Origin: Alloprevotella sp.
GTDB taxonomy: Bacteria > Bacteroidota > Bacteroidia > Bacteroidales > Bacteroidaceae
Assembly (NCBI GenBank): GCA_045631665.1
Contig: JAZQVD010000051.1
Span: 60,754-124,753, forward strand
Length of the DNA: 64,000 nt
Direction of reading: 5' to 3'
The notes beneath the pieces were generated by a model, which worked only from the letters and a program-made list of their open reading frames with translations, was not told the origin of the DNA and ran no database searches. This document shows positions 5,931-13,295 of the stretch, one piece after another; positions within the stretch are counted from its first letter, which is position 1; every line of letters starts with the position of its first letter. Position numbers and translations under genes: made by a program.

Positions 5931-7655
5931 CTACGCCTGCTCCAGCGGGCGGATGTCCTCAATCTGAAGTTGCACCTCGCCGCGCTTATGCGTATTCTCT
6001 TCTACCGAGTAACAGATGTCAAACGCACGCTTCGTCTTGATGTAACGCGCCTGTGAGCTTTGCCCGAAAGCAATGCCGTTCATGATGCTGTTACTCTTGT
6101 TGTCGACAAGCTCAAGCTTGATGTGCTCTTGTCCGCGTCCCACCACCTTGCTCGTACCGTAGTCATAAACGCGCGGTGTGAAGAAGATGGGCTTGGGATT
6201 TCCGGGTCCGAAGGGCGAGAACTTCTTCAAGTCTTGATAGAACTTCATATTGATGTCGCAGAAATCGAGTTGCGCGTCAATATCCAGCGTGGGCTGCGTC
6301 TGTTCGTCGAGAATGTGCTCCGCAACATACTCCTCAAAGCGCTGCTTAAAGGCTTCGACATTCTCCACCTTGAGCGAAAGCCCAGCGGCATACGTATGTC
6401 CGCCAAAGTTCTCGAGCAAGTCGGCACAATGCTGCACTGCGCTGTACACATCAAAGCCCGAAACCGAACGCGCAGAGCCCGTGGCGATTCCCTCACTACG
6501 CGTGAGCACCACAGCTGGGCGGTAGTACAATTCCGTAAGGCGCGACGCTACGATACCAATGACACCCTTGTGCCAAGCCTCGTTGTAAATCACCACAGAG
6601 CGGTGGTCGTCAATGCCAGGAGTAGCCTTCGCCATCTCAATTGCCTCTTCGGTCATCTGCTTGTCGAGGTCCTTGCGCGCATCGTTGTACTGGTCAATCA
6701 AGTTTGCCAATTCCAGCGCTTCAGGATAGTTGCGCTCTACAAGAAGTTGCACCGCCTCTTTACCATTCTGCATTCTGCCCGAAGCATTGAGGCGCGGACC
6801 GATTTTGAAAATGATATCGTTCATCGTCACCTCGCGGTCGGCTACGCCACACACCTCACAAACGGCCTTCAAGCCGACAGAGGGTTTGCTGTTCAAGATG
6901 CGCAAGCCATGATAAGCCAGGATGCGGTTCTCACCCATAATAGGCACGATGTCAGAAGCAATACTGATGACGCAAAGGTCAAGCAACTGATGCAACTGAT
7001 TGAACTCGATGCCATTACTTTGGGCAAAGGCTTGCATAAACTTGAAGCCCACGCCACAACCCGAGAGGTCGGTGTAAGGATAGCGGTTATCCTCGCGCTT
7101 GGGGTTGAGAATCGCCACCGCACAAGGGAGTTCCTCATCAGGAACATGGTGGTCGCAAATAATAAAATCGATGCCCAACTCCTTTGCATAGGCAACTTCT
7201 TCAATAGCCTTGATACCGCAATCAAGCACTATGATTAAGCCCACACCAGTTTCGGCTGCAAACTCCACACCCTTCTTTGAAACGCCATAACCTTCGTCGT
7301 AGCGGTCGGGGATGTAGAAATCAATGTTTGGATAAAAGTCGCGCAAGAACTTGTACACCAGCGCCACCGCCGTACATCCGTCCACATCATAATCGCCATA
7401 GACCATGATGCGCTCCTTGCGGATCATCGCCTCATTAAGTCGGTCAACGGCTTCCTGCATGTCGTTCATCAAAAACGGGTCGTGCAAGTCGGCAAGCTGG
7501 GGTCGGAAAAAGCGCTTTGCCTCATGCGGCGTGGTGAATCCGCGTTGGACCAGCAAGTGCCCCAAAGCAGGATGCACTCCCGCTTCTTGCGCCAGCTGCT
7601 CCTCAGCACTCTTCACCTCGGGAGAAGGCAGTTCGTAATTCCATTTGTATATCAT
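5931..7655 (-). CDS. recJ: single-stranded-DNA-specific exonuclease RecJ
   Basis: YGDYDVDG, DCG, DHH, GSARS, FGGH motifs. Confidence 0.96.
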   Translation of the reverse strand: MIYKWNYELPSPEVKSAEEQLAQEAGVHPALGHLLVQRGFTTPHEAKRFFRPQLADLHDPFLMNDMQEAVDRLNEAMIRKERIMVYGDYDVDGCTAVALVYKFLRDFYPNIDFYIPDRYDEGYGVSKKGVEFAAETGVGLIIVLDCGIKAIEEVAYAKELGIDFIICDHHVPDEELPCAVAILNPKREDNRYPYTDLSGCGVGFKFMQAFAQSNGIEFNQLHQLLDLCVISIASDIVPIMGENRILAYHGLRILNSKPSVGLKAVCEVCGVADREVTMNDIIFKIGPRLNASGRMQNGKEAVQLLVERNYPEALELANLIDQYNDARKDLDKQMTEEAIEMAKATPGIDDHRSVVIYNEAWHKGVIGIVASRLTELYYRPAVVLTRSEGIATGSARSVSGFDVYSAVQHCADLLENFGGHTYAAGLSLKVENVEAFKQRFEEYVAEHILDEQTQPTLDIDAQLDFCDINMKFYQDLKKFSPFGPGNPKPIFFTPRVYDYGTSKVVGRGQEHIKLELVDNKSNSIMNGIAFGQSSQARYIKTKRAFDICYSVEENTHKRGEVQLQIEDIRPLEQA

Positions 7656-7971
7656 TGTAGTATATTTTTGTCAGAGTCAAGGGTGCGCCAAAGCGACACT
7701 ATCCCAATTAGCGAGTAAAATTACAAAAATCCCCCGAATTTTGCCCCGTACAAGCCCCACAATTTTGCCCCACACTTATATATTTATCATGCGGGCGCGC
7801 TACTGCCAAAAACAAAGTGTATCTTTGCAGAATGTTTAATTGAGGCAAAAGGTTTTAGGGGGCAGTGATCTTTTTAAGAAACCTTGGGGATGTCTATGTT
7901 TCCCTAAGAGACTCCCCTCCCAACCTCAAAACCTAATAACCTCAAACCTTACTCTCATAACCACCTCCTAT

Positions 7972-9783
7972 ATGCAAGCAATCATCTTGGCAGCCGGCAT
8001 GGGACGCCGCCTTGGCGATCTCACAAAGGACAATACAAAGTGCATGGTAAAAGTCAATGGCGTAACGCTCATTGACCGCCTGCTCACGCAATTATCGAAA
8101 CTTCAGCTCAACCGCGTTGTCATCGTCGTTGGGTATGAGGGAGAAAAGTTGCAAGCCCACATCGGCACGCACTACGATGAGACGCTGAAGATTGAGTATG
8201 TCAATAATCCCGTTTTTGACAAGACCAACAACATTTACTCTCTTGCCCTGGCAAAAGAGCAGTTGGAGGAGGACGACACGCTCCTTATCGAGAGCGACCT
8301 TATCTTTGACGATGCCATGTTCCCCCTTTTGCTGAACGATCCTTACCCCAACTTGGCGCTCGTAGCCAAATATCAGACGTGGATGGACGGAACGATGGTG
8401 CGCATTGACGAAGATAATAACATCGTAAACTTTGTTCCGAAGCAGGCTTTCAAATATTCGCATGTCGATTCGTATTACAAGACGGTCAACATCTATAAGT
8501 TCAGCAAAGAATTTGCGCGCAACAAGTATGTTCCCTTCCTCGAGGCCTACACCAAGGCACTTGGCAACAACGAATACTACGAACAGGTGCTCCGTGTCAT
8601 TACTTTCCTCGACAAGTCGGAACTTAAGGCGCTCCCCATCTCGGATGAGAAATGGTATGAGATTGATGATATTCAGGACCTCGACATTGCAGAAGCCCTT
8701 TTCGCAGAGGGCGAAGAGCGCCTGAAGAAGTACATGAAGCGCTTCGGGGGCTATTGGCGCTTCCCGGGATTATTGGACTACTGCTACTTGGTAAATCCCT
8801 ACTACCCCTCTTCCCGCATGATGGATGAGATGCGTGCGAACTTCAACATCCTGCTTACGGAATATCCCTCGGGCATGTATGTCAATTCACTCCTTGCAGG
8901 AAAATGCTTTGGCGTGAAACAGGAGTATGTTGTTCCCGGCAACGGAGCCGCAGAACTCATCAAGAGTCTTATGGAACTGCTTCCTGGAAAATTAGGTGTA
9001 TCCTACCCCACTTTTGAGGAGTATCCCAACCGCCGTAGTGCCGAAAGTTTAGAAATATTTACGCCCAACAACGCCGACTTCCACTATACGGCCGCAGAAC
9101 TTAAGGCGCATTTTGAAGCACATCCCGTTGACACCCTCCTGCTCGTCAATCCCGACAATCCTTCGGGCAATTTCTTGACACGAGATGAGGTGCTCGACCT
9201 CGCAAAGTGGTGTGGCGCGCGCGGCATGAAGTTTGTCGTAGACGAATCCTTCGTTGATTTCAGCGAAAACTACGAGCAACACACCCTTCTTGCCGACTCC
9301 ATCCTCGAGGCTCACCCCTGGATGATGGTGATGAAGAGTATTTCTAAATCATACGGCGTACCCGGATTGCGCCTCGGCATTCTCGCCTCTGCGGATAAGG
9401 AACTCATCGCCACACTCAAGAAGGACGTAGCCATTTGGAACATGAATTCGTTTGCAGAATTCTACATGCAGATTTTCACCAAGTACGAAGCCGACTACCG
9501 CCGCGCTTGCATGAAATTCCAAGAGGAGCGCCGCCGCTTCCAAGCGGATTTGCAGACGATTCCCTACTTGCGCGTCATCCCCTCACAGGCAAACTACTTC
9601 TTATGTGAGGTTACGGCGAAATATACTTCCCACGAACTCGTGCTTCGCCTGCTTGAAGATTACAACATCTTGGCAAAAGATTGCAGCACCAAGAAGGTTT
9701 TCAACGGCAGAAGTTACATCCGCCTTGCCATCCGCAACCGCGCCGACAATCAGCGCCTTGTTGAGGCACTGAAGCAACTCTAA
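7972..9783 (+). CDS. fusion of LicC/PntC-like cytidylyltransferase and CobD/HisC-like PLP enzyme
   Basis: Likely start ATG 7972 (MQAIILAAGMGRRL..KCM); NNIYSL, ESDL, WYEIDD; C-terminal half has NPDNPSG, VDESFVDF, SISKSYGVPGLRLG (PLP lysine). Confidence 0.85.
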   Translation: MQAIILAAGMGRRLGDLTKDNTKCMVKVNGVTLIDRLLTQLSKLQLNRVVIVVGYEGEKLQAHIGTHYDETLKIEYVNNPVFDKTNNIYSLALAKEQLEEDDTLLIESDLIFDDAMFPLLLNDPYPNLALVAKYQTWMDGTMVRIDEDNNIVNFVPKQAFKYSHVDSYYKTVNIYKFSKEFARNKYVPFLEAYTKALGNNEYYEQVLRVITFLDKSELKALPISDEKWYEIDDIQDLDIAEALFAEGEERLKKYMKRFGGYWRFPGLLDYCYLVNPYYPSSRMMDEMRANFNILLTEYPSGMYVNSLLAGKCFGVKQEYVVPGNGAAELIKSLMELLPGKLGVSYPTFEEYPNRRSAESLEIFTPNNADFHYTAAELKAHFEAHPVDTLLLVNPDNPSGNFLTRDEVLDLAKWCGARGMKFVVDESFVDFSENYEQHTLLADSILEAHPWMMVMKSISKSYGVPGLRLGILASADKELIATLKKDVAIWNMNSFAEFYMQIFTKYEADYRRACMKFQEERRRFQADLQTIPYLRVIPSQANYFLCEVTAKYTSHELVLRLLEDYNILAKDCSTKKVFNGRSYIRLAIRNRADNQRLVEALKQL

Positions 9784-9798
9784 AGACACTTTCCAACT

Positions 9799-10803
9799 AT
9801 GCAAATTTGTATTTGCGGGGGCGGATCGCTGGCACATGTTTGTGCAGGCGTGCTTTCCTCCGACACAAATAACAGCGTGAGCATCTTGACGCGCCGCCCT
9901 TCAGAATGGCACGATTCCATCGAGGTTTTCGACCCTAACGGACGTACCTTCACAGGGCGCTTGGCGCAGATTTCAGCGTCGCCCGCCGAGGTCGTTGCGG
10001 GTGCAGAAGTCGTATTGCTCTGCCTTCCTGGCTATGCCATCGCAGAGGTGCTTCAACAAATCAAGCCTTACCTTTCTGCACAAACTTATGTAGGCAGCAT
10101 CGTGTGTAGCACGGGCTTTTTCTTCTTCGCCCACGAGATTCTCCATCCCGAGACGCCCCTTTTCGGATTCCAACGCGTACCTTTCATCGCTCGCACTATC
10201 ACTTACGGGCAGAGCGCCAACCTCTTGGGATATAAGAGCGAAGTGGCGGTGGCGATTGAAGCCCCTGCGGAAAATGCCGAACAGTTGCGCGAATGGATAG
10301 CACAAGCATTCCTCACGCCCACCCGTTTGCTCAACCATTACTACGAGGCGAGCCTTACAAATAGTAATCCCATTCTCCACACCAGCCGACTCTACAGCAT
10401 GTGGAAGGATTGGGACGGCACGCCTTTCCCCGTCAATACGCCCTTCTACCGTGAGTGGACACTCGAAGCCTCAGAAATTCTCATCGCTATGGATGAAGAG
10501 TTCATGCGCTTGCTCGACCACTTGCCCGTAGACAAGCGCCAAATCCCCACGCTGCTCGACTATTACGAAAGCACCGACGCAGCGTCGCTCACGCGCAAGA
10601 TTTCGTCAATACAGGCGTTTAAAAACATCCTCTCACCCATGACTGAAACGCCCGAGGGTTGGATTCCCGACTTCAAAAGTCGCTACTTCACCGAAGACTT
10701 CCCCTACGGACTCCAGTTTATCAAGAATCTTGCCGAACAGCATCAGGTATCAACCCCTCAAATTGACCAAGTTTTGGCCTGGGGATTGAGTAAATTAAAA
10801 TGA
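9799..10803 (+). CDS. NAD/NADP-dependent opine (octopine/nopaline) dehydrogenase family protein
   Basis: Rossmann ICGGGSLAH; NPILH; SRYFTEDFPYGL; TPQID. Confidence 0.85.
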   Translation: MQICICGGGSLAHVCAGVLSSDTNNSVSILTRRPSEWHDSIEVFDPNGRTFTGRLAQISASPAEVVAGAEVVLLCLPGYAIAEVLQQIKPYLSAQTYVGSIVCSTGFFFFAHEILHPETPLFGFQRVPFIARTITYGQSANLLGYKSEVAVAIEAPAENAEQLREWIAQAFLTPTRLLNHYYEASLTNSNPILHTSRLYSMWKDWDGTPFPVNTPFYREWTLEASEILIAMDEEFMRLLDHLPVDKRQIPTLLDYYESTDAASLTRKISSIQAFKNILSPMTETPEGWIPDFKSRYFTEDFPYGLQFIKNLAEQHQVSTPQIDQVLAWGLSKLK

Positions 10804-10881
10804 AACCTATTGTCGTAAAAATTATTAGTAACCTAAAAAAAATTATTAGTAATGTAATTTAAAAAAGGTTACTAATAATTT
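10803..10881. repeat. 21-bp-period palindromic element, copy 2
   Basis: aaattattagtaacctaaaaa / aaattattagtaatgtaattt / aaaaaaggttactaataattt. Confidence 0.9.
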
Positions 10882-11013
10882 CAAGCGAATTAGAGGCGTT
10901 TTCTCAAACAAGTAAAACGCACTCATCCCCAACTAATAACATTGCGATTACAACAACCCCATTTTTCACGCCCCAAGCAGGGCAGGGAAATAAGGTAACA
11001 GCACCCTTTTTTA

Positions 11014-11802
11014 ATGACAAAAATTGACTCCATACAAGAGTTGCGCCAGTTGCAAATTGACATTCTCGACACGGTGCATCAGTTCTGCTTGGAACGCGGA
11101 ATCACTTATTTCCTCTCCAGCGGCACACTCCTCGGCGCCGTTCGCCACGGAGGTTACATTCCGTGGGACGACGACATCGACCTCTATATGCCCCGCGAGA
11201 GTTACGACCGATTTGTGCGAGAATTTGTGGGAGTTGCGCCCCACTTGGAGGTATATGCTACGGGCAAAGAGGGATATTTCTACACCTTTGCCAAGGTTGT
11301 AGATACGCGCACCCAATTGGTGGAAGATGAATTCCCCGACCTTTCGTTGGGCATCAACATTGACATTTTCCCTGTCGATGGTGTGGCAGACGCAATGTGG
11401 CAACGCAAGTTGGAGTTCAGATTTAAGGAATTCTTAGTCAACTGGCTGCGCATCCGTCGCAAAAAGGAGCGTGAGTCTAAGGGTTTTCTGCGTGACATGA
11501 TGGTATGTGTTTTCAAAAAAATGCCCATTTCATCGGGGAAAATCACTACTTTCTTCCACAAGTTCTGTGCCCGTCATGCGCAGTCGGAATATGTGTGCAA
11601 CCTTTCCGAAGTGGGGCCCAAAATTAAGGGATGTATTCCCCGCGCGTGCATTGCGAATAGCATAGACATCCTTTTTGAGGGCAAGAACTACAAGACCATG
11701 AACGGTTACATCGAATACCTGACGGCGACTTACGGCGACTTTATGAAATTGCCCCCAAAGGAAAAGCAGGTGCCGCATAATTGCACGGCGTATTGGTTGT
11801 AG
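11014..11802 (+). CDS. licD: LicD-family phosphotransferase
   Basis: GTLLGAVRHGGYIPWDDDIDL, IDIFPVD, YL..YGDFM.LPP. Confidence 0.9.
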   Translation: MTKIDSIQELRQLQIDILDTVHQFCLERGITYFLSSGTLLGAVRHGGYIPWDDDIDLYMPRESYDRFVREFVGVAPHLEVYATGKEGYFYTFAKVVDTRTQLVEDEFPDLSLGINIDIFPVDGVADAMWQRKLEFRFKEFLVNWLRIRRKKERESKGFLRDMMVCVFKKMPISSGKITTFFHKFCARHAQSEYVCNLSEVGPKIKGCIPRACIANSIDILFEGKNYKTMNGYIEYLTATYGDFMKLPPKEKQVPHNCTAYWL

Positions 11803-11858
11803 TTTTTGATAAGTCTCTAACAACCTTAAAACCTAAAACCTCATAACCTCAAAAAACA

Positions 11859-13295
11859 ATGAAACGTTTTTCCAGCCTCCTCATTCTCCTTTTCCTTACG
11901 CTCTCTGTCGTAGCGCAAGGCAAGGCAAAATATGTTTTCTACTTCATCGGCGACGGCATGGGCGTCAATCAAGTGAATGCTGCCGAGACTTACCTCGCCG
12001 CCCTTGAGGGACGCATCGGCATCAGTCCGATGGCGTTTTCTTCATTCCCCCATGTGGCGCTCGTACATACCGAATCTGCCACAAATGGCGTGACGGATTC
12101 TGCCGCAGGTGGCACTGCCCTCGCAACAGGTGAGAAAACAAAAAACGGCGTAATCTCTATGACGCCCGACGGACAGGCTTCCATCGCCAGCATTGCCTCT
12201 GAGGCAAAGGAAATGGGCATGGCGGTGGGCGTAGCAACCTCTGTGAGCATCGACCATGCTACTCCCGCAAGTTTCTTTGCCCATGAAGCCTCACGCAGTA
12301 ACTATCACCGCATTGGGCACGACCTTTTGGAAGCAAACTTTGACTTCTACGCAGGCTCTGCCTTCTTGCAACCTACGCACAAAGACTGCCCCAACGAAGT
12401 GCCCCTCTATCAACTTTACGAGAATGCGGGTTACACGATAACAAAGGGGGTGGATTTTAACGAGAAGAAGATGAAGAAGGCCAAGCGCCTCATGATGATT
12501 CAATCAGACGAGGCAAACGCTTTTGACAACACCGCCCTGCCCTACGCCATTGACCGTGGCGAAAACGACCTTACGCTTGCGACCATCGTAAGTAAGGGCA
12601 TCGACTTCCTTATGAAGAAAAACAAGGACGGTTTCTTCTTTGCCATCGAAGGAGGCAAGATTGACTGGGCGTGCCATGCCAATGACGCGGCGGCGGTAAT
12701 CCAGGAAACGCTCGACCTTGACGAAGCGGTGAAAGTGGCGTTGGAGTTCTACAAACAGCATCCCGATGAAACGCTCATCGTAGTAACTGCCGACCACGAA
12801 ACAGGCGGCATGTCGCTCGGAACTGGGGCTTACGAACTCCGCCTCCAATTGTTGCAGTATCAAAAAATGAGTGCGTGGAAATACACCAAGCATATTTCGC
12901 AACTCCACACCACGCTTGGCGACGGATTTACCTGGGAAGTTGTCAAGAAAGACTTGACCGAAAATTTCGGTTTCTGGGAGCACATCGCCATCAGCGAGCG
13001 CCAGGAAGCGCGTCTCAAGAAAGCGTACGAAGCCCTCGTTGCCGGCAAAGCAGAAGGCAGCAAGAGTCTCTATTCTCAGGAAGACGCCCTCGCAACCACC
13101 GCTAAGGAGATTATCAATCGCTATGCCCTCGTAGGATGGACCAGCGGCGGCCACTCAAATGGCTATGTCCCCGCCTTTGCTATCGGTGTGGGCGCAGAAC
13201 AATTCTCTGGACGCATCGACAATACCGAAGTGCCCAAGCGCACTCGTAAAGCATTTACACTTACTCAAGAAGAGCGCAACGCAAGGGTTAAATAA
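11859..13295 (+). CDS. alkaline phosphatase (secreted)
   Basis: Signal peptide; FIGDGMG, VTDSAA, HATPA, EGGKIDWACH, TADHETGG. Confidence 0.92.
   Translation: MKRFSSLLILLFLTLSVVAQGKAKYVFYFIGDGMGVNQVNAAETYLAALEGRIGISPMAFSSFPHVALVHTESATNGVTDSAAGGTALATGEKTKNGVISMTPDGQASIASIASEAKEMGMAVGVATSVSIDHATPASFFAHEASRSNYHRIGHDLLEANFDFYAGSAFLQPTHKDCPNEVPLYQLYENAGYTITKGVDFNEKKMKKAKRLMMIQSDEANAFDNTALPYAIDRGENDLTLATIVSKGIDFLMKKNKDGFFFAIEGGKIDWACHANDAAAVIQETLDLDEAVKVALEFYKQHPDETLIVVTADHETGGMSLGTGAYELRLQLLQYQKMSAWKYTKHISQLHTTLGDGFTWEVVKKDLTENFGFWEHIAISERQEARLKKAYEALVAGKAEGSKSLYSQEDALATTAKEIINRYALVGWTSGGHSNGYVPAFAIGVGAEQFSGRIDNTEVPKRTRKAFTLTQEERNARVK

Follow-up and report, generated by a model that had tools for sequence, protein, structure and literature searches.

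In a 64,000-nucleotide stretch of a Bacteroidales genome (hereafter the window; contig JAZQVD010000051.1), three genes on the plus strand likely constitute a conserved, exchangeable module that, judging from sequence comparisons, would place N-(1-carboxyalkyl)-ethanolamine phosphate on a surface glycan. The genome is Alloprevotella-like according to its nearest GTDB records and 89% complete. The genes encode a cytidylyltransferase fused to a pyridoxal phosphate (PLP) domain (7972-9783), an octopine-dehydrogenase-family enzyme (opine dehydrogenase, ODH; 9799-10803), which starts 15 nucleotides (nt) behind the stop of the fusion gene, and LicD (11014-11802); open reading frames (ORFs) and Pfam matches agree in this respect with a first-pass annotation of the same DNA. 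We propose, with a probability of about 0.6 for the scheme as a whole, that phosphoserine would be converted into cytidine diphosphate (CDP)-ethanolamine and further into CDP-N-(1-carboxyalkyl)ethanolamine, whose headgroup would be added to a surface glycan. In the first step, the fusion would very probably turn O-phospho-L-serine and cytidine triphosphate (CTP) into CDP-ethanolamine without a kinase. The ODH-fold enzyme would then, quite probably, condense the amine of CDP-ethanolamine reductively with a 2-oxo acid at the expense of NAD(P)H; pyruvate, which would give N-[(R)-1-carboxyethyl]ethanolamine, is the somewhat favoured keto acid. Finally, and again very probably, LicD would move the phospho-headgroup onto a sugar hydroxyl with release of cytidine monophosphate (CMP). 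The core of this scheme, a kinase-free CDP-aminoalcohol route with N-carboxyalkylation by the ODH and transfer by LicD, had been put forward by the first-pass annotation and is supported by gene co-occurrence, gene fusions and active-site residues.

The linkage of the fusion and ODH genes is far beyond chance. We searched an even draw of 400 Bacteroidales genomes, identical for the three queries, with the PLP domain, the ODH and an ornithine cyclodeaminase (OCD)-family protein. The PLP domain was present in 10 genomes, adjacent to an ODH gene in five, to an OCD gene in three and to neither in two. All five close ODHs of the draw, which come from five different families, lie directly behind a PLP gene, and the four genomes with distant ODHs (~30% identity) lack one. 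Five close OCDs were found: three adjoin a PLP gene, one follows a full aminoethylphosphonate (AEP) cassette (locus L110) and one neighbours two LicDs where its contig ends. Among ten ODH loci from GTDB genomes, nine have the PLP gene directly upstream (eight whole fusions, one PLP half only). From metagenomes, we took the best 80 of 584 confirmed fusion loci; seven are cut within the gene and two end just after it, leaving 71 to be scored. The next gene is an ODH in 36 (seven of them ODH-LicD fusions), an OCD/mu-crystallin gene in 12 (one inverted) and a phosphonate cassette in two, with none of these in the remaining 21 (a GNAT gene in one case). The metagenome fusions fall into 45 clusters at 90% identity; in three of these, fusions followed by ODH are grouped with others that have OCD or lack a partner. 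No classified locus contains ODH and OCD together. The co-occurrence check suggested by the first-pass annotation thus found the genes linked in many other Bacteroidales, the ODH being one of several interchangeable partners. Moreover, ODH-LicD, LicD-ODH and CTP_transf_like-ODH fusion proteins exist among 50% representatives (eight long matches scanned of the 150 listed). The best solved relative of the OCD is 4M54, which we take to be SbnB, an opine-type enzyme; its match to TIGR03944 is below the cut-off. No OCD match was obtained in plasmids, and phage matches of the fusion were partial and CobD/HisC-like only.

The tenth GTDB locus (L009:3628-10255) encodes PntC, phosphoenolpyruvate (PEP) mutase (Ppm), phosphonopyruvate decarboxylase (Ppd) and an AEP transaminase (TIGR03301, 469 versus a cut-off of 360.8), followed by an ODH and a TagF-like transferase. 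A complete AEP cassette followed by OCD is found at L110:5614-10835. According to these assignments, the two unrelated upstream modules, the fusion and the AEP cassette, would have in common a CMP-linked 2-aminoethyl-P group as product. As either module precedes either of two unrelated imine-reducing folds, ODH or OCD, the simplest reading is N-carboxyalkylation of the 2-aminoethyl amine, and L009 and L110 are candidates for N-carboxyalkyl-aminoethylphosphonate synthesis. On a plasmid of Gloeothece verrucosa (L106:5796-11439), the fusion is followed by an S-adenosylmethionine (SAM) methyltransferase and LicD among glycosyltransferases. Such an order would be expected were the middle gene to act on the amine, the putative role of the methyltransferase; the set is possibly a kinase-free de novo route to a (methyl)ethanolamine or choline phosphate decoration. 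Diaminopropionate synthesis of the SbnA/SbnB type was considered and rejected: it leaves the AEP pairing unexplained, and SbnA has a different, cysteine-synthase fold. At L053 (8001-14100) and L082 (6775-14170), the fusion precedes an NTP transferase-cytidylyltransferase-PEP mutase, Ppd and an Fe-alcohol dehydrogenase, a cassette of the hydroxyethylphosphonate type; these cassettes lie next to folK, at the site where the ODH versions are also found.

The 603-amino acid (aa) fusion (Pfam NTP_transf_3, 6e-13, and Aminotran_1_2, 2e-32) resembles FrbH in its architecture, judging from Pfam, homologues and a structure model (pLDDT, the model confidence score, 89.6) whose fold matches are PntC-AEPT (PntC fused to an AEP transaminase), CobD and 6OUX. 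Its N-terminal half (7972-8706), first labelled LicC-type, is indeed a cytidylyltransferase; it matches PntC (6PD1, E 2e-11) better than LicC (1JYK, 2e-10) and has the ESDL motif of PntC. By alignment, residues of note are R13, K23, E107-S-D109, D139, K157, K170, E204, E230 and D232, so that PntC Arg15, Lys25, Glu104, Lys153 and Glu196 are all matched (R13, K23, E107, K157, E204). Glu104 and Glu196 form the primary-amine pair of T. denticola PntC, whose residue roles are described in PMC6697681, whereas LicC has Asp105 and Asp192 at these positions. All 90 classified loci have R13, K23, E107 and E204, and 87 of them also have K157. Neither Glu varies among the 50 loci with ODH, the 15 with OCD and the 23 that lack a partner, and the alignment contains no column that segregates by partner. 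Position 170, however, is Lys in 92/92 fusions and Glu in both aligned PntCs of AEP cassettes (L009, L110); Lys is also found in distant fusions of Gloeothece, Fusobacterium, Bacillus, Rahnella and Pseudonocardia. This Glu-to-Lys swap would fit a carboxylate-bearing substrate. T. denticola PntC-AEPT (Tde1415, 6PD1) matches the N-terminal half best in both sequence and fold, has the same Glu pair and makes a CMP-aminoethyl donor for LicD-like transferases. It differs in its second domain, a class V transaminase, and in needing Ppm and Ppd, whereas the window fusion has a decarboxylase-like domain of fold type I, Lys170 instead of Glu and an added opine-type step. No PEP mutase gene is present at the locus, and the whole genome yields a single PF13714 match, which is borderline and PanB-like.

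Streptomyces rubellomurinus FrbH, an enzyme of FR-900098 biosynthesis, cytidylylates L-2-amino-4-phosphonobutyrate (PMC6697681) and also decarboxylates it, yielding CMP-3-aminopropylphosphonate (PMC8007912). In chemical terms this substrate would be the phosphonate isostere of phosphoserine, which makes FrbH the closest functional precedent. Like the fusion, FrbH (compared by its description) combines a PF12804 nucleotidyltransferase with a PLP decarboxylase-type domain; unlike FrbH, which acts on a phosphonate in an antibiotic pathway, the fusion is followed by LicD at a locus without a PEP mutase-like gene. The FrbH precedent and the Glu-to-Lys swap suggest CDP-serine as intermediate, and we slightly favour cytidylylation followed by decarboxylation over the opposite sequence. 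The order of steps, left blank in the first-pass annotation, can thereby be narrowed in one respect, alkylation after cytidylylation, while the relative order of cytidylylation and decarboxylation is proposed as possible only. N-alkylation after cytidylylation and before transfer is likely because the nucleotidyltransferase site is invariant across partners and because ODH fuses to LicD. The same product could be reached otherwise, by an ODH acting on free phosphoethanolamine prior to cytidylylation or on ethanolamine already attached to the glycan. Characterised opine dehydrogenases do use small free amines, CTP_transf_like-ODH fusions exist and a lipid-linked repeat unit would be reachable in the cytoplasm. 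We nevertheless consider such an order improbable, since the pocket, in which two Glu residues face the amine, does not differ between loci that have ODH, OCD or neither, near-identical fusions swap partners and fusions of ODH to LicD occur in both orders.

The PLP domain (8737-9783) had been described as CobD/HisC-like. This holds for the fold; its nearest solved relative is 6OUX (5e-38), the serine-O-phosphate decarboxylase SMUL_1544 of Sulfurospirillum (~30% identity), ahead of Salmonella CobD (1LC5, 4e-29) and the best HisC-labelled structure (3FTB, 3e-25). The domain scores below the cut-offs of both CobD (TIGR01140, 181 versus 290.55 bits) and HisC (TIGR01141, 132 versus 276.55 bits). 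In an IQ-TREE phylogeny of 29 rows, which contains no capsule-locus transaminases and in which the decarboxylase is a long branch (flagged), all fusions and WP_025344678.1, annotated as 'norcobamide biosynthesis serine-O-phosphate decarboxylase', form one clade (support 100/99). This clade is sister to three CobDs and separate from four HisCs. The PLP half and the decarboxylase have the motifs D-x-C-Y-L-x-N-P-Y, YPS and WN in common; the PLP-site residues are Lys459 (the PLP lysine), D424, R467 and R584. With SMUL_1544 and CobD the domain thus has PLP-site motifs in common, SMUL_1544 falling into its clade and the CobDs beside it, but it is only ~30% identical to SMUL_1544, lies outside a cobamide cluster and is joined to a cytidylyltransferase. 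The serine-O-phosphate decarboxylase type is favoured: of the two substrates named earlier, phosphoserine is preferred to phosphothreonine on the basis of the tree. A serC gene, scoring above its cut-off, adjoins a serA-like gene, and phosphoserine supply is therefore encoded. A cobalamin role was rejected on the basis of the missed CobD cut-off, the tree placement and the lack of cbiB, for which no match was found in the 89% complete genome; the neighbours of the PLP gene are ODH and LicD. A histidine role was rejected as well, given the missed HisC cut-off, the different clade and a separate hisC-like gene on contig C6. On the same contig, an 803-aa ORF (C6:47016-49427) appears to join hisD-like and hisC-like regions, either as a true fusion or through an assembly artefact.

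A transaminase activity of the PLP domain would lead to another amino-alcohol headgroup, still N-alkylated and transferred by LicD. C. jejuni Cj1437, a transaminase of CobD/HisC fold encoded in a capsule locus, reportedly converts dihydroxyacetone phosphate (DHAP) to serinol phosphate. The HisC/CobD fold, the match to the HisC model (E 3e-38) and the low identity to the decarboxylase would be compatible with such a function, and K569, aligned with what we take to be the phosphate-binding Arg position of CobD, is Lys in only 68 of 94 rows. We judge this alternative rather unlikely in view of the well-supported clade with the decarboxylase, the common PLP-site motifs and the architecture of FrbH, a decarboxylase; in addition, the fusion is interchangeable with the AEP cassette, whose product carries a 2-aminoethyl group.

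LicD (262 aa; PF04991, 1e-40, 140 bits versus a cut-off of 22.6) has a DxD motif within PWDDDID. As stated by the first-pass annotation, neither licA nor licB is found beside the three genes (ORF list and Pfam scan); a choline-kinase profile gave one match in the 89% complete genome, below cut-off and on another contig. The cassette resembles the Lic pathway (LicA/B/C/D) in the transfer of a CDP-activated amino-alcohol phosphate by LicD. It differs in lacking an adjacent kinase and transporter, in its predicted de novo supply from phosphoserine, in the Glu/Glu pocket instead of Asp/Asp in LicC and in the predicted charge of the headgroup. With one amine set against two acid groups, the phosphodiester and the carboxylate, the product is predicted on chemical grounds to be net anionic, and not a zwitterionic, phosphocholine-like decoration as assumed in the first-pass annotation. 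Concerning the acceptor, a low-GC (low guanine-cytosine) polysaccharide locus on the minus strand (window 24882-51404), containing by inspection a flippase, polymerase-like genes and many glycosyltransferases, is a possible source; no second LicD match was found inside it. Transfer onto a lipid (glycolipid, diacylglycerol, ceramide) or a glycoprotein glycan instead of capsule or O-antigen appears about as unlikely as the transaminase. The lipid transferase Mf1 belongs to the LicD family, the window cassette lies outside any polysaccharide locus and distant fusion homologues adjoin genes for CDP-alcohol phosphatidyltransferases. Yet the Mf1 match is weak (76 versus a cut-off of 225 bits), and many relatives have the cassette among glycosyltransferases and flippases (e.g. 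L033, L060, L116 and L117).

For the 334-aa ODH, Pfam (Octopine_DH, PF02317, 6e-33; 114 bits versus a cut-off of 30), alignment and model agree. Scallop octopine dehydrogenase is its best match by both sequence (E 1e-30) and model (pLDDT 97; template modelling (TM) score 0.83 to 3IQD). The protein has the two-domain fold, a GGG motif and the residues H194, R295 and D300, which align with scallop His212, Arg324 and Asp329; 49/49 close ODH rows have all three. Asp329, its number read from the alignment, is presumably the Asp of the catalytic dyad. R32, considered with regard to NADPH preference, is found in 31 of the 49 rows. In the scallop enzyme, the His-Asp dyad, the sensor Arg324 and the guanidinium ligand Glu142 have been described (PMC2924402). 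The ODH thus has the fold, dyad and Arg sensor in common with Pecten maximus octopine dehydrogenase (3IQD/3C7A) but differs in its surface-glycan context, in a predicted amine donor that is not an amino acid and in the replacement of Glu142-Thr143 by Gln125-Arg126, kept in 48/49 and 49/49 close rows, respectively. This replacement is consistent with an anionic amine donor. That ODH and OCD leave the headgroup untouched (supplying amino donors, a free opine or an opine amide on a uronic acid, with fusion and LicD adding plain phosphoethanolamine) could account for the 21 of 71 loci without partner, for the ATP-grasp neighbour of a second, distant ODH in a capsule locus of this genome and for the alanine dehydrogenase in the OCD family, but is the least probable alternative given the direct ODH-LicD fusions, the strict association of close but not distant ODHs with the PLP gene in the 400-genome draw, the absence of an ATP-grasp gene from the cassette and the mutual exclusion of ODH and OCD.

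N-[(R)-1-carboxyethyl]ethanolamine phosphate (R-Cet-EtnP) is a component of P. mirabilis O-polysaccharide (PMC9630907). If the keto acid is pyruvate, R-Cet-EtnP would be exactly the predicted product. The serogroup bearing it is presumably Proteus O14. No Proteus counterpart of the cassette was detected: the Proteus matches obtained are 26% identical and score like a Serratia siderophore-cluster enzyme, and no enterobacterial names occur in the clusters of 20 mid-identity ODH representatives. In a literature search, which left most subscription journals outside and is weak in this respect, no description of this gene set or of genes for R-Cet-EtnP was found. The module is real and conserved and seems to be an uncharacterised variant of nucleotide-activated headgroup decoration.

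Beyond the PLP-domain points given above, several observations weigh against the proposed pathway. Each AEP pairing was seen at one locus (L009 with ODH, L110 with OCD), and L053 and L082 carry fusion and phosphonate cassette without ODH or OCD. Sequence identity to characterised enzymes is only ~25-30%. The Q-R motif of the ODH is not diagnostic, since Burkholderia ODHs of unrelated context also have it. Among the 36 metagenome ODH loci, 23 have LicD, three a TagF-like transferase only and ten neither in the stretch fetched. The ODH-adjacent LicDs do not form one clade (FastTree, 53 rows), and the window cassette stands alone, 13 kb from the large polysaccharide locus. Finally, passages of the review PMC5560731 on the Proteus O14 cluster do not mention carboxyethyl, Etn or licD, although such genes may be listed in its supplements.

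If the proposal is true, genes would be assigned to an orphan glycan substituent, N-carboxyethyl-ethanolamine phosphate, which gut Bacteroidales would commonly make: the fusion is present in 22 of 80 genomes of the genus. Opine dehydrogenases would be extended to nucleotide-linked amines that are not amino acids, and many capsule-locus genes labelled 'ornithine cyclodeaminase' or 'histidinol-phosphate aminotransferase' would need re-annotation. Phosphocholine and phosphoethanolamine headgroups govern surface charge, binding of antimicrobial peptides and phages, and host recognition. A wider and clearly speculative reading is that the nucleotide-activated headgroup pathways of Bacteroidales contain a swappable 'amine-tailoring slot'. 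Here, an FrbH-like CDP-serine route would be followed by N-carboxyalkylation through ODH or an OCD/SbnB-like enzyme, plausibly of opposite handedness, acting on CDP-ethanolamine or CMP-aminoethylphosphonate. Opine-phosphate and undescribed opine-phosphonate surface epitopes would then be exchanged among close relatives in the manner of serotype cassettes.

The cassette lies between a recJ-like gene (5931-7655, minus strand; labelled by sequence inspection, without a scan), which is outside the pathway, and an alkaline phosphatase gene (11859-13295, plus strand; Pfam). This interval (window 7656-11858) is variable among close relatives: G766 (L134; phosphatase 97% identical) and G761 (L139) have a lone, different LicD there, and G750, G772 and G764 (loci among L141, L143 and L144) no such gene. 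The site behaves like an exchangeable surface-modification slot. Because the phosphatase adjoins the recJ-like gene in relatives without the cassette, it is probably not part of the pathway. Low-complexity repeats border the cassette (7921-7949 and 11821-11849), their motif having 181 matches genome-wide. Some joints in contigs from RNA libraries skip the cassette; in view of these 181 matches they were not used as evidence.

The fusion gene starts with ATG at 7972; an in-frame TTG is located further upstream at 7840. The ATG start fits the lengths of homologues (594-611 aa among the 120 listed), and a 27-sequence consensus begins at the same Met. The 210-nt gap between ODH and licD holds a 27-nt inverted repeat (10819-10881, 81% complementary), possibly a hairpin or a dispersed repeat, at which some RNA-library contigs have loose ends. 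Promoter and terminator scans of the locus gave matches at chance level. RNA-library contigs from four runs of two studies, which cannot by themselves demonstrate transcription, span much of the region; one bridges the fusion-ODH junction and part of the ODH is uncovered.

ODH-family genes were also encountered in other settings. The second ODH of the genome (C20:78645-82797, L098), not detected by tblastn with the window ODH, is situated in a capsule locus next to LicD, a CapA-like gene and a TupA-like ATP-grasp-like gene (labels by likeness to scanned homologues). A similar ODH and ATPgrasp_TupA pair is found at L123, and such pairs might serve to form opine amides on uronic acids. A search of viral contigs with the ODH alignment gave 94 pattern matches, none of which was confirmed. 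Plasmids of Paraburkholderia and Burkholderia (L099, L100) carry two convergent genes of the ODH family, accompanied by a methyltransferase, a dioxygenase and a tyrosinase; the aligned ODH has Tyr where the Arg sensor is expected. On a plasmid of Rhizobium sp. 007 (L102, 1462-12815), PEP mutase, PLP enzymes, a cytidylyltransferase, a CDP-alcohol phosphatidyltransferase, ODH and a methyltransferase are clustered. A distant homologue of the fusion on a Bacillus cereus plasmid (L105, 4443-13741) is accompanied by a DXR gene, an acyl carrier protein (ACP), an aminoacyl-tRNA-ligase-like gene and an ATP-grasp gene, which looks like an uncharacterised small-molecule cluster.

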